From NCBI GenBank assembly GCA_033762295.1, contig JANRLW010000116.1:1-47891 (forward strand): 47,891 nt of DNA, in the 5' to 3' direction. Origin of the DNA: Capsulimonadales bacterium (GTDB taxonomy: Bacteria; Armatimonadota; Armatimonadia; Armatimonadales; Armatimonadaceae). The position numbers were made by a program. Position 1 is the stretch's first letter. Each line of letters opens with the position of its first letter. This document shows positions 9,001 through 12,000 of the stretch, one piece after another.

Positions 9001-12000
9001 GGAGAAGATTCGATCGAACTTCTATGAGTTCGATCAGGCCAATACGTTGAGCGGCGGTGTCACCTACATGTTCGCGAGCGGCGGCTCGGCGGGGCTGTCC
9101 TTCGTCTACGGCAGCGGACTGTACTCCTCCGCGCTGTCCTCGTTGCCGAACGGCACCACGATTCCGGCCAACTCGGCCAACCTGGCGAATCCGGTGCGGA
9201 CGCAGTCGCGCAAATCCTGGAACGAGGTCAACCTGCGGTTCGCGACGCCGCCGAATTTCCTGTATCGGCAACGGGACGGACGCGGGATCGGTATCGAGTT
9301 TCAGGTGGAGAACCTGTTTGACTCGCTGTCGGTGCTGAACTGGCGCGGACCCTTGGCCGGCACCCGGTATCAGCTCGGCCGGCGATTTTATCTGGGACTG
9401 ACGGGACGTTTATAAGGTCCGGAAAATCCGGAATCGTCCGAAGATATAGTGGAAACGGACGGTTCCGGGTATAGTGGTGTTTGGGGAAGGGCGCCAGGTC
9501 CGACGGCGCTCCTTCCATGACGAACGGAACGCAAGAACGTAAAAAGAAGCGTGGACTAAACGGGTACAAGCCGCTTCCTTCGGTGCCGGACCGGTCGGAG
9601 AGCCTCCGCAGGCATGCACGCCCTCCGGAGGCCGGTTCAGATTTCCAGTCAGGGCCTAAACACCGGGTATGGCCGGGTTACGGATGAAGAAAAACACCTT
9701 TCGCTTGACAGGAATTTCACTGCGAAAAGGTTCAATCTTGTTGTAGAGTATTCCGACGGTCGAAAAAATCGGAAGAATGCCGGGTTTGCCATCGCCTGCC
9801 ATGAGGTCGGTAGCGCCCGTTTCCGAGGGTCCGTCAACCGGTTGGAGGTCCGCAAAGGCACGTAATGGAAGCATTTAGCATTTTTCAAAAGGGCGGCTTC
9901 GTCATGTACCCGCTGCTGCTCATGTCTCTGGCAGCGGTCGCCTTTTCGGTCGAGCGTTTCCTGGCTTTCCGGCAGTTCGGTAGCGGAAGCCCGGAAGGTT
10001 TCCTGGACGAGATGGTGAACCTGGTTCGGAACGGTCGGGCGGGGGATGCCCTGCGGCGAGCCGAACAGGTGCCCGGACCGGTCGCGGCCGCCGCCGTCGC
10101 CGTTTTGCGGCATCGAAACGCGGCGATCGAGGACGTCGAACGGGAAGTCGCCGTCACGATCGAGGATTACTTCGTTCGTCTCGAACGGTTCCTTCCGTGG
10201 CTGGACACCTTTACGACGCTGTCGCCGTTGCTCGGACTGCTCGGTACCATTCTCGGAATGGTGCAGGTCTTCCAGGAGTTCCGTAGCGCCAACGCGGAAG
10301 GAAGCGGCGGCGCGACCGACTCGCTGCTGGCGGGCGTCGGTGAGGCGCTGTACGCCACGGCGTTCGGTATCGCCATCGCCATCTTCTGCTTCTTCGCCTA
10401 CAACTCCTTTGCGGCGGCACAGCGTGCCGTCGCGATCGAGTCGCAGCAGATGGCCACCAAACTGATCGCGCTTCTCCACGATATGCGCCTCCGCCAGGAA
10501 GGCTACCAGGCGACACAGGAGGAGATGCTCGGAAAGCGTAAGCAGCGACGGGCGTCCTCCGGACGCGCGCTGAAGAAGACCAAGGTCGAAATCATCCCGA
10601 TGATCGATACCATGTTCTTCCTGCTCGTCTTCTTTATTCTGACCTCGGTCGGTCTGATCAAGCCGGAAGGCAACGTCAAACTGCCGGACGCCGCGACGGG
10701 GGAACGCAAGAAACCGGCCCAGGTGGTCATCGCGATCCTTCCCGACGAAAGTGTGAAGGTCAATAAAAAACTTCTGCGGCCGGGCGATAACATCGCGACG
10801 GTGTTGCAGGAAGAGATCGCCGGTCAACTGGGTACCGTCACCCCGGAAGACCTGGTCAAGGCGACGATCACGATTCAGGCCGATAAGGGAGTTTCCAGCA
10901 AGACGGTCGTCTCAGCGATCAATGAGATTGCGACCGCCGGCGTGGGAACAGTGACGATCGCAACCGGGAATGCTGCCGGTTCAGGGTCCGCGTCCGCGTC
11001 CGCGCCGACGGGAGCCACGGAGTAGAAACCGGGGTCGATCGACCGTCCGACCTTCCGTCGAAACGGAGGCGATCGCGGGATTCACGTCATGTTCGGATGA
11101 AACTGAGGTCCTCCTCGGTGAACGATATTGCCGGGGCAGAGCATCGGAGGAGCGTTAGGCGACTATGGGATATCTGGTGGAATTCTACACGGGCGGCGGT
11201 CTGGTCATGCATCCGTTGCTCATCATGCTTCTGGCGGCGATTTACTTCATCATCAATCGATTTCAGACGTTCGCCAAGGACGGGGCGACTTCGCCCGGAC
11301 TGCTGGATGAAGTCGTGGATCTGGTGAAGAAGGGGCGCGAGGGCGACGCGCTTCGCCGCGCCGAGGAAGGTGTCGGTCCGGTGGCGGCGTCCCTGGCGAC
11401 CATCCTGCGTAACCGCAACATGCCGTTCGAGGACATCGAACGGGAAGTCGAAGTCACCGGTGAGGAGTACTTCATCAAGCTGGAGAAGTTCCTTCCGTGG
11501 CTGGACACCTTTACGACGCTGTCGCCGTTGCTCGGACTGCTCGGCACCATTCTCGGAATGGTCGGCGTCTTCCAGAAGTTCCAGGCGGCACAGCGGGCGA
11601 ATCAGGCCGGTTCCGACCTTCTGGCGGGTGTCGGTGAGGCGCTGTACGCCACGGCGTTCGGTATCGCCATCGCCATCACCTGCTTCTTCTTCTACAACTA
11701 TTTCGCGGCCCGACAGCGCGCCATCTCGATCGAGACGCAGCAGGCGGCCACCAAGTTGCTGGCGGTCATCCATGACCAGCAGGTTTCGCGCCGCGTCTGA
11801 GCGTTCCCACGCCGAAGCGAGCAGATGGTCCGAAGGAGGGAGCGGATTCCGGCGGAATCCGCTTTCCGTCTCTCAGGGGCCGTTGTCAGGAAAAGGCGAA
11901 GTCGGCCCGCTTCGGAATTGCATCGGATGATTGAAGTTTTTTGACGGCCGGAAGGTCCGAAGTATATGAGAGACGACAACCGGTCGGATCGTTCCGAACG

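Follow-up and report, generated by a model that had tools for sequence, protein, structure and literature searches.

Organization of the Locus

The window, i.e., the entire 47,891-nucleotide stretch that was analyzed, carries a row of five genes on its forward strand: a TonB-dependent receptor, an ExbB-ExbD fusion, a free ExbB, a free ExbD, and a long TonB. ORF calling together with Pfam searches bore out both the 386 amino acid fusion with its complete MotA_ExbB and ExbD domains at 9865..11025 (+) and the set of neighbors that the earlier note had listed. The receptor (6200..9415, +; Pfam TonB_dep_Rec_b-barrel, 3.7e-14, 53.9 bits against a cut-off of 27) is the sole PF00593 match in the whole genome; its ORF spans 1071 amino acids when counted from the first TTG, a putative start, and its N-terminus includes a weak CarboxypepD_reg-like stretch that falls under the cut-off (7.9e-05). 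Downstream of the fusion are the 211 amino acid free ExbB (11165..11800, +; Pfam MotA_ExbB, 8.7e-24), the 193 amino acid free ExbD (12025..12606, +; Pfam ExbD, 3.2e-16), and the 641 amino acid TonB (12775..14700, +), whose C-terminal TonB_C domain was matched at 2.8e-06, its 28.1 bits exceeding the cut-off of 24.6.

A terminator-like hairpin follows tonB at 14723..14752 (+), with a 13-pair stem that includes nine G-C pairs and leads into a T run; no comparable site was seen between the motor genes. An Rfam scan of positions 5000-15500 gave no match, and the promoter scan returned no site. Overall, the row has the gene content of a Ton system, with a TonB_C protein and a TonB-dependent receptor on the same strand as the motor genes and the terminator-like site past tonB. 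The genome has three genes of the MotA/ExbB family, two of which are in this row. The host is called a soil-type bacterium.

Domains of the Fusion Protein

The fusion, a 41-kDa chain at full length, is encoded by a single uninterrupted frame with an ATG start. Residues 72-188 match PF01618 (MotA_ExbB; model positions 8-120 of 127) at 2.8e-22, with 79.3 bits against a cut-off of 22.9, and residues 239-368 match PF02472 (ExbD; model positions 6-126 of 128) at 4e-19, with 69.4 bits against a cut-off of 25.4. Membership of the ExbB half in PF01618 is indicated by both the profile score and a three-helix fold, and that of the ExbD half in PF02472 by the profile, a transmembrane helix with its Asp, and a periplasmic domain. 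Both halves are complete, in an order that is compatible with the known topologies of ExbB and ExbD. The AF2 model of the whole chain has a mean pLDDT of 79.

The ExbB/TolQ-like half (residues 1-211; 9865..10497, +) comprises TM1, cytoplasmic helices, TM2, and TM3 with a cytoplasmic extension; the helices in the AF2 model (residues 2-38, 110-142, and 150-211) fit the membrane fold with a long extension of TM3. Over residues 6-209 it shares 64% identity with the free ExbB, and it aligns to residues 102-219 of the 230 in E. coli TolQ. Foldseek matched it to the TolQ/ExbB chains of 9ddm, 5zfp, 6tyi, and 9ddo with target-normalized TM-scores of 0.57-0.67.

The ExbD transmembrane helix of the AF2 model covers residues 243-262 (10591..10650, +), and Asp248 (codon 10606-10608, +) was placed immediately ahead of the ExbD transmembrane helix. 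The conserved proton-site Asp is D25 in the numbering of ExbD and D23 in that of TolR. The fusion stretch 'iipmidtm' aligns with 'vtpfidvm' of the Serratia ExbD chain 7ajq_F, starting at chain residue 17, which pairs Asp248 with chain position 25; Asp248 was also aligned with the Asp of TolR chain 9ddm_Y. It is invariant in all 32 fusion sequences compared. The periplasmic domain (residues 286-366; 10720..10962, +) was modeled with a pLDDT of about 90, and Foldseek matched it to 8p9r (TM-score 0.80, target-normalized) and 8pek, both of which are ExbD periplasmic domains.

Between the halves is a linker (residues 212-242; 10498..10590, +) that is basic and that the AF2 model shows mostly as coil of low confidence (pLDDT 52-64), with 31 residues separating the end of the ExbB helix from the ExbD helix. 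Its basic character, as proposed earlier, is evident from eight K/R residues versus three D/E in the window protein and from a mean net charge of +3.8 over the 32 sequences. Across the same set, the span between conserved ends ranges from 20 to 46 residues (median 26), and the sequence is poorly conserved. An unconserved and predicted disordered linker is what might be expected if the fusion were simply a device for co-production, the linker being cut after membrane insertion or an internal start giving a separate ExbD, so that the mature motor would be an ordinary ExbB5:ExbD2; the window linker even contains an AGGAGG-like stretch and an ATG (Met219). A conserved internal start is nevertheless unsupported, as only nine of the 32 linkers contain a Met, at no fixed position, and no conserved cleavage motif was seen. 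Cutting a 1:1 precursor would also yield an excess of ExbD, and neither the origin nor the upkeep of the sister free ExbB and the free ExbD would be explained. We thus regard processing into separate subunits as quite improbable.

Distribution of the Fusion

Thirty database clusters (P0002-P0031), each of 358-402 amino acids and 47-79% identical to the window protein, contain both PF01618 and PF02472, and one more, P0044, is the odd one out by size at 280 amino acids; these figures agree with those first reported for the gene. The one named source, that of P0020, is an Armatimonadaceae bin, and the next database matches after the fusion clusters are free ExbB proteins. Because 30 other clusters retain the frame over this range of identities, the fusion is not an assembly error, and the retention of that frame across a linker that is unconserved and variable in length indicates selection for the fused state.

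All fusions found of the window protein's family fall in one Armatimonadota clade. In a sample of 401 genomes from the phylum, no stop-free match covered both halves apart from the fusions of G000 and G010 themselves; further candidates in G001, G002, and G012 were rejected when ORF calling and phmmer resolved each into separate ExbB and ExbD genes. A second, more distant family of ExbB-ExbD fusions exists (P0123, P0130, P0149, P0274-P0276, and P0329), and the dependence of a fusion on a free ExbB, discussed below, was examined in the window protein's family. A literature phrase search found no paper on natural ExbB-ExbD, TolQ-TolR, MotA-MotB, or PomA-PomB fusions. Among the matches listed, papers with 'ExbB', 'ExbD', and 'gene fusion' had other subjects, as judged from their titles and the start of their abstracts; in PMC5903867 and PMC12583513, 'fused' describes liposomes or tags and not a natural fusion.

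Conservation of the Gene Order

That the fusion travels with a free ExbB had been argued in the earlier note from pairs on contigs of equal size, and five such pairs were indeed recovered (P0009/P0033, P0024/P0038, P0014/P0050, P0019/P0046, and P0020/P0055). Coordinates can now replace that argument: a free ExbB is directly downstream of the fusion in all ten loci with enough downstream DNA (the window, G008, G010, L107, L108, L109, L111, L113, L114, and L117), L108 and L113 being near-copies of G010. A free ExbD is the next gene in all five loci that reach far enough, followed by a long TonB in the four that extend further; the long TonBs of G010, G008, and L113 are 659-726 amino acids. The Asp is invariant in the partner-type free ExbDs (7/7).

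The receptor gene is likewise upstream of the motor genes in related loci. Related loci of the same family have the order ExbB-ExbD-ExbD-long TonB, and two ExbD forms per motor are thus the local norm.

Origin of the Paralogs

Fused and partner ExbBs form one clade (42 rows, SH-aLRT 99), within which the seven partner-type ExbBs are a sub-clade, also with an SH-aLRT of 99. Judged by sequence, the free ExbB is therefore the sister, and closest, paralog of the fusion, and the shared clade means that the extra ExbB arose together with the fusion.

Overall, the free ExbD is 41% identical to the fused ExbD half, and the stretch 'ALKKTKVEIIPMIDTMFFLLVFFIL' is common to both; its transmembrane segment is identical to the fused one, and its periplasmic domain is divergent. 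Orthology of the free ExbD with the second ExbD (D2) of the three-gene loci was considered but is unsupported, because both the full-length tree and a tree of the periplasmic domain group it, weakly (SH-aLRT 90), with D1. A single clade for fused and partner ExbDs was not rejected by the AU test (p = 0.389), and the ExbD tree fits these proteins either as sisters or as older paralogs.

Similarity of the Membrane Helices

In all four genomes compared, TM2, TM3, and the ExbD transmembrane segment of the fusion are 100% identical in protein sequence to those of the free copies. In two of the four, the window and G010, these three segments also have about 93-100% identity at third codon positions, and the loop and the periplasmic domain have diverged. 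Against the free exbB, the first patch, in TM2 (residues 107-131; 10183..10257, +), has a third-position identity of 0.93-1.00, as compared with about 0.2-0.5 in the cytoplasmic loop, and the second, in TM3 (residues 154-178; 10324..10398, +), one of 0.87-1.00. The third patch, in the ExbD transmembrane segment (residues 236-260; 10570..10644, +), is at 0.93 against the free exbD, whereas the periplasmic domain gives only 0.27-0.5. Such near-identity at silent sites in two of the four genomes points to gene conversion. Three columns were found to co-vary between genomes versus 0.58 expected, and five of 265 derangements reached three. The identity of the membrane helices may simply reflect a strong, clade-wide constraint on them.

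These patterns bear on whether the fusion is part of a working motor at all. By themselves, the two free proteins might suffice for an ordinary 5:2 motor, leaving the fusion with a role apart, for instance as a regulator or assembly factor, such as a locked, non-turning unit that holds TonB or plugs the channel. A tether between rotor and stator would be the simplest lock for a rotary unit, and the free pair is complete in itself. Against this, both halves of the fusion keep every conserved channel residue, including the Asp, among proteins that are 47-79% identical, and membrane helices that stay the same in fused and free copies, in part, it seems, through gene conversion, are hard to explain unless the proteins share a complex or mechanism. 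A fusion outside the working motor is therefore considered improbable.

Proposed Assembly of the Motor

The constant presence of a free ExbB partner is in keeping with the idea that a 1:1 fusion alone could not yield a 5:2 motor. Our preferred reading, offered as a tentative one that falls somewhat short of probable, is that the fusion takes part as a working subunit in a Ton motor of mixed composition, with one fusion, four ExbB, and one ExbD. One fused chain would fill a single position in the five-membered ExbB ring and provide one of the pair of ExbD helices that form the axle; the remaining four ring positions would go to free ExbBs, and the other axle helix would come from one free ExbD. 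The resulting ExbB5:ExbD2 complex, of 1,405-1,423 residues in full, would display two different ExbD periplasmic heads and would have the long TonB and the neighboring outer-membrane receptor as its working partners. The single cytoplasmic tether might act as a swivel, or might limit the turning angle, without blocking the motor. We infer the co-assembly in one complex, the count of one, four, and one, and the swivel or angle limit.

For Ton and Tol motors, the favored though still hypothetical mechanism has the ExbB ring rotating around ExbD. Other mechanisms are still under consideration, and how the proton gradient induces rotation is not known, according to a 2024 review (PMC11658791). If the ring does turn around the axle, two tethers would be expected to braid, but one could swivel. 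A parallel comes from F1-ATPase, where, according to PMC3536650, a single rotor-stator cross-link on a single helix permits rotation by swiveling, and a two-stranded coiled coil resists it.

The number of tethers is where the mixed motor departs from the assembly originally suggested, in which two fused chains and three free ExbBs would make up the 5:2 complex; on that reading, the free ExbD would serve elsewhere, e.g., in a second, all-free ExbB5:ExbD2 motor. The arithmetic of that proposal gives exactly 5:2, the free ExbB, a sister copy, co-occurs in 10/10 loci, and the fused ExbD keeps its Asp, such that a homodimer of it would, like its E. coli counterpart, contain two proton sites. However, as stated, it has no role for a free ExbD that is strictly retained (5/5 loci) with its Asp (7/7), and two tethers fixed at both ends would presumably braid with each turn of a rotating ring, by analogy with the coiled coil of PMC3536650. 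One plus four plus one is 5:2 as well and uses all three genes, and we favor it because the conserved free ExbD is otherwise unexplained; assembly from two fused chains thus seems unlikely. In short, the part of the stoichiometric reasoning that has the fusion needing a free ExbB has held up (10/10 loci; sister copy, SH-aLRT 99), and the count of two plus three is a matter of arithmetic.

It is also conceivable that a single chain places its ExbB half in one motor and its ExbD half in a neighboring one, giving linked pairs or arrays. A linker of 20-46 residues (31 in the AF2 model) could reach a neighbor, and no constraint on stoichiometry within one ring would then apply. But to enter the neighbor's pore, the chain must pass through or under the cytoplasmic domain of that ring, links between motors would stop rotation, and nothing in the data calls for such an arrangement, which we judge extremely improbable.

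Returning to the mixed motor, its broader implication, which we hold with more doubt than the assembly itself, is that nature has long conserved a 5:2 ion motor whose rotor (the ExbB ring) is connected to its stator axle (ExbD) through one covalent tether, both axle subunits being proton-competent. A natural chain linking ring and axle that has long been kept with free copies of both parts narrows the possible models: it would force a mixed, asymmetric assembly and would limit how many such links a turning motor can bear. If a motor with a single tether works, then Ton-type motors either tolerate a rotor-stator link by swiveling or need only a limited turning angle. The fusion would then offer a construct ready-made by nature with which to put the rotary model of Ton and Tol motors, still unproven, to the test. 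It would also have an inherent break in symmetry of use to structural biology, and the marking of one ring position would help both cryo-EM and single-molecule studies.

Comparison with Known Systems

The E. coli TolQ-TolR(-TolA) complexes (PDB 8odt, 9ddm, and 9kpz) include the best matches to the ExbB half of the fusion in both sequence and structure (7e-9 against 8odt; target-normalized TM-scores of 0.57-0.59 against 9ddm), and the TolR alignment to the fusion begins at TolR residue 5. Unlike the Tol system, the partners in the window are a TonB_C protein and a receptor rather than TolA, TolB, or Pal, none of which was seen among the window ORFs. The fusion scored 63.2 against a cut-off of 221 for tolQ (TIGR02796) and 50.2 against 127.3 for tolR, and the locus does not belong to Tol-Pal.

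The E. coli Ton motor, ExbB5-ExbD2 with TonB (PDB 5sv0, 6tyi, and 9ddo), shares with the window locus the same protein families, a TonB of the TonB_C type, and an adjacent receptor; in alignment, the Asp of the ExbD half falls on that of solved ExbD, and the folds match. It differs in that the window joins one ExbB and one ExbD in a single chain and that its operon has two ExbB and two ExbD forms together with a 641 amino acid TonB. The NCBIfam scores for exbB (TIGR02797, 29.2 against a cut-off of 206.2) and ExbD (TIGR02803, ExbD_1, 31.9 against 152.95) are far under the equivalog cut-offs, making the fusion a distant family member and not an equivalog of the proteobacterial proteins.

A physical precedent for the proposed tether is an engineered rotor-stator disulfide in F1-ATPase (PMC3536650), which shows that a rotary motor can keep turning with one covalent link close to its axis, since a single chain can swivel. 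Note that this is a precedent in physical terms only, since the cross-link is artificial and the motor is unrelated and ATP-driven.

Among unfused loci, those most closely related to the fused clade show the ExbB-ExbD-ExbD-TonB layout with long TonBs of 584-1091 amino acids. These Armatimonadota sister loci resemble the Myxococcus oar-exbB1-exbD1-exbD2-tonB1 locus, as described in the review PMC11658791, in having a receptor gene, a TonB, and one motor operon that encodes two forms of ExbD. Both have one ExbB and no fusion, whereas the window has two copies of ExbB, one of them fused to an ExbD. The window locus illustrates one way for a 5:2 complex to absorb a gene fusion, the simultaneous duplication of its majority subunit.

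Gene row and structure of the fused protein

The fusion gene (9865-11025, + strand) is a single open frame of 386 amino acids and the second of five genes on that strand. The row begins with a TonB-dependent receptor (6200-9415) and continues after the fusion with a free ExbB (11165-11800; 211 amino acids), a free ExbD (12025-12606; 193 amino acids), and a long TonB carrying a TonB_C domain (12775-14700; 641 amino acids); this is the order reported in the earlier note, and both the ORFs and the Pfam matches bear it out. A strong terminator-like hairpin (14723-14752, + strand) follows tonB and none comparable was found between the motor genes; the five genes are thus probably one operon. 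Upstream of the receptor gene lie a 922 amino acid MalT-like AAA/TPR/LuxR regulator (917-3685, - strand) and a 193 amino acid ECF-type sigma factor (4317-4898, + strand), both of them possible regulators of the cassette; no anti-sigma gene was identified.

Pfam confirmed that one 386-residue chain carries both domains, MotA_ExbB at residues 72-188 (2.8e-22) and ExbD at residues 239-368 (4e-19), each well above its curated score. Both halves are complete. Over residues 6-209 the ExbB half shares 64% identity with the free ExbB, and it can be aligned with residues 102-219 (of 230) of E. coli TolQ. Alignments of the ExbD half to Serratia ExbD and to TolR, the latter starting at TolR residue 5, put Asp248 on the conserved transmembrane Asp. 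An AlphaFold2 model, built from an alignment of 32 fusion sequences, had a mean pLDDT of 79; helices at 2-38, 110-142, and 150-211 make up its ExbB part, residues 212-242 form a coil of low confidence, the ExbD helix spans 243-262, and the periplasmic domain (286-366) is modelled confidently. In Foldseek, the first part of the model found TolQ and ExbB chains, with target-normalised TM-scores of 0.57-0.67, and the last part found the ExbD periplasmic domain 8p9r, at 0.80 on the same normalisation. After a common 'HD', free ExbB has 7 residues, and free ExbD has 16 before 'ALKKTK', whereas 28 residues separate the two motifs in the fusion; by this count, the two proteins are joined almost directly, with about five residues added.

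The genome (94% complete) holds three MotA/ExbB-family genes, two of them in the fusion row. The third, a 260 amino acid ExbB on contig C120 (locus L023, 2141-10767), belongs to an ExbB-ExbD-ExbD set ordered as a 1205 amino acid Met-zincin (DUF5117/DUF4953), ExbB, two ExbDs, and a 1073 amino acid PA14-domain protein; a phmmer query found no TonB_C at that locus. TonB_C has three matches in the genome, and the receptor beside the fusion is the sole TonB-dependent receptor barrel match, so the row is the genome's only complete receptor-motor-TonB unit. Elsewhere in the window, a CheB-like methylesterase gene precedes one for a 1736 amino acid protein (together 21079-27356, + strand) that unites CheB, CheR, several PAS domains, a GAF domain, and a histidine kinase (HisKA_3/HATPase) on a single polypeptide. 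An island of low GC (33300-37800; 0.48-0.56 versus ~0.63 elsewhere), possibly acquired DNA, includes a DndB-like gene (34207-35430) as well as a number of ORFs without a Pfam match. A 969 amino acid TPR-CHAT protein adjoins a 436 amino acid subtilase (Peptidase_S8) at 38007-42319 (- strand).

Conservation and distribution

A database search yielded 30 other clusters with both domains (358-402 amino acids, 47-79% identity) from JGI, ENA, NCBI, and Logan assemblies, the same set that the earlier note had described; as it also said, automatic JGI names on these records read 'ExbB/TolQ/ExbD'. Across the fusion alignment, TM2, TM3, and the ExbD helix, including its Asp, are invariant. The linker is free to vary in both sequence and length (20-46 residues; median 26), its net charge averages +3.8, and the reading frame across it is always kept. 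Judged by this conservation, the fusion is no artefact.

A survey of 41 genomes from the order to which the source genome belongs found the intact fusion in three genera of one family (the source genome, G008, and G010) and in none of the 16 genomes of the sister family. Contigs sampled at one genome per species supplied 80 loci, of which one, L042, holds the fusion and is the G008 locus again. Five of 74 metagenome loci carry it complete (L107-L111), and three more (L113, L114, and L117) start inside it with the linker visible. All named fusion records are Armatimonadota. The remaining related loci have the layout receptor-ExbB-ExbD-TonB or receptor-ExbB-ExbD-ExbD-long TonB, and no other. In this family, long TonBs (584-1091 amino acids) occur with two ExbD forms, fused or unfused, and short ones (~300 amino acids) accompany ExbB-ExbD loci.

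A free ExbB lies downstream of the fusion in all 10 loci with enough downstream DNA (the window, G008, G010, L107, L108, L109, L111, L113, L114, and L117; in L108 the start of free ExbB is readable at 2429); L110, with only 86 bases downstream, was left out. Because L108 and L113 nearly duplicate G010, the 10 loci represent about six distinct lineages. A free ExbD comes next in 5/5 loci reaching that far, and then a long TonB (641-726 amino acids) in 4/4. The association with a free ExbB, proposed in the earlier note, thereby holds by coordinates. The pairing of the fusion with its sister free ExbB is firmly established, and the fusion itself is real, conserved, and part of a fixed five-gene Ton cassette.

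Origin of the fused and free copies

The ExbB tree comprised 113 rows; nine loci duplicating those of the related genomes, ORFs shorter than 190 amino acids or cut by a contig end, and all but four proteobacterial loci, kept as the outgroup, were left out. Fused and partner ExbBs form one clade (42 rows, SH-aLRT 99), within which the partner type is a single sub-clade of 7 (SH-aLRT 99) that may either branch from within the fused rows or stand as their sister. By this tree, the extra ExbB arose together with the fusion, through a duplication specific to this lineage. Fused ExbD halves group together (SH-aLRT 96 at full length, 78 for the periplasmic domain alone), and partner ExbDs, whose branches are long, fall close to the first ExbD of three-gene loci (SH-aLRT 90); a tree uniting fused and partner ExbD was not rejected (AU p = 0.389). 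The ExbD pair may thus have come from duplication of a whole exbB-exbD pair, or its two members may be older paralogs, both retained. The free ExbD of the window has an insertion of ~20 residues ('KRQTPDSDTD...GNSLLTQ', residues ~150-175) ahead of the final strand of its periplasmic domain; this insertion is shared by the close relative L168 and absent from the remaining five partner ExbDs.

TM2, TM3, and the ExbD helix are identical between fused and free proteins in all four genomes compared (the window, G010, G008, and L111); in 15-codon windows, protein identity is 33-73% in the cytoplasmic loop and 13-47% in the periplasmic domain. Silent sites are near-identical in three patches of the window, all on the + strand and confined to transmembrane helices: TM2 (10183-10257 versus free exbB 11485-11559), TM3 (10324-10398 versus 11620-11694), and the ExbD helix (10570-10644 versus free exbD 12073-12147). 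Third-position identity there is 87-100%; in G010 it is 73-100% for TM2 and the ExbD helix, and outside the patches it is 20-50% in both. These patches look like products of local gene conversion between tandem paralogs. Third-position identity over these segments falls to 40-73% in G008 and L111, where the helices are therefore maintained by selection alone. Three columns differ between genomes yet agree within a genome among six fused/partner ExbB pairs; mismatched pairs are expected to give 0.58, and three were reached by 5 of 265 derangements. Such a pattern would be expected if the copies assembled together in one ring and one pore, but it is not proof, because the helices are strongly constrained across the whole clade; fused and free proteins may alternatively serve separate motors, or fused chains may bridge motors.

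Proposed assembly

A 1:1 chain cannot alone make an ExbB5:ExbD2 motor, so a free ExbB is needed, a point on which our data and the earlier note agree. Arithmetically, two counts reach 5:2: two fusions with three ExbBs, hypothesized in that note, or one fusion with four ExbBs and one ExbD. Our preferred hypothesis is the latter, in which each motor would contain one fusion, four free ExbBs, and one free ExbD. It gives a use to the always-present free ExbD, which retains the Asp in 7/7 sequences, and two ExbD forms per operon are usual among the nearest unfused relatives. It is also preferred on topological grounds. In the favoured model (PMC11658791), the ring (ExbB) turns around the axle (ExbD). 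Twist in a single tether, joining the cytoplasmic end of the axle to the ring, would be relieved by rotation about backbone bonds, and the tether could pass the free end of the other axle subunit; two tethers fixed at both ends would braid, with one crossing per turn. F1-ATPase offers a physical precedent for this last point: according to PMC3536650, rotation survived when a disulfide tied rotor to stator through a single helix, and a link in the two-stranded coiled coil abolished it. In the AlphaFold2 model, TM3 continues for ~30 residues beneath the membrane, and the ExbD helix follows after a further 31 residues (212-242), a predicted geometry that allows the cis arrangement, with distances reckoned arithmetically from helix and chain lengths. 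Tether behaviour and the exact subunit count are both offered as hypotheses; alternatively, the linker may be cut, or the fusion may be a locked regulatory unit.

Relation to known systems

A phrase search, which does not reach subscription-only papers, found no paper on a natural ExbB-ExbD fusion, and the papers listed for ExbB/ExbD with 'gene fusion' concern, by title and opening of abstract, other matters. A profile run against 1.84 billion representatives detected a second, more distant fusion family of about 20 clusters (261-427 amino acids; P0123, P0271-P0276, P0130, P0148, P0149, P0295, P0329, and P0129 among its members), which keeps the ExbD Asp ('RIEIIPMIDTIFF'); some forms of only ~261-284 amino acids still have both domains. 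This family is related to the C120-type ExbB, and its nearest unfused relatives are ExbB-ExbD-ExbD loci of the type found on C120 and in the related genome G034. The nearest described systems are the E. coli ExbB5-ExbD2-TonB and TolQ5-TolR2-TolA motors and receptor-linked ExbB-ExbD1-ExbD2-TonB operons; the fusion cassette is a variant within this known kind of motor.
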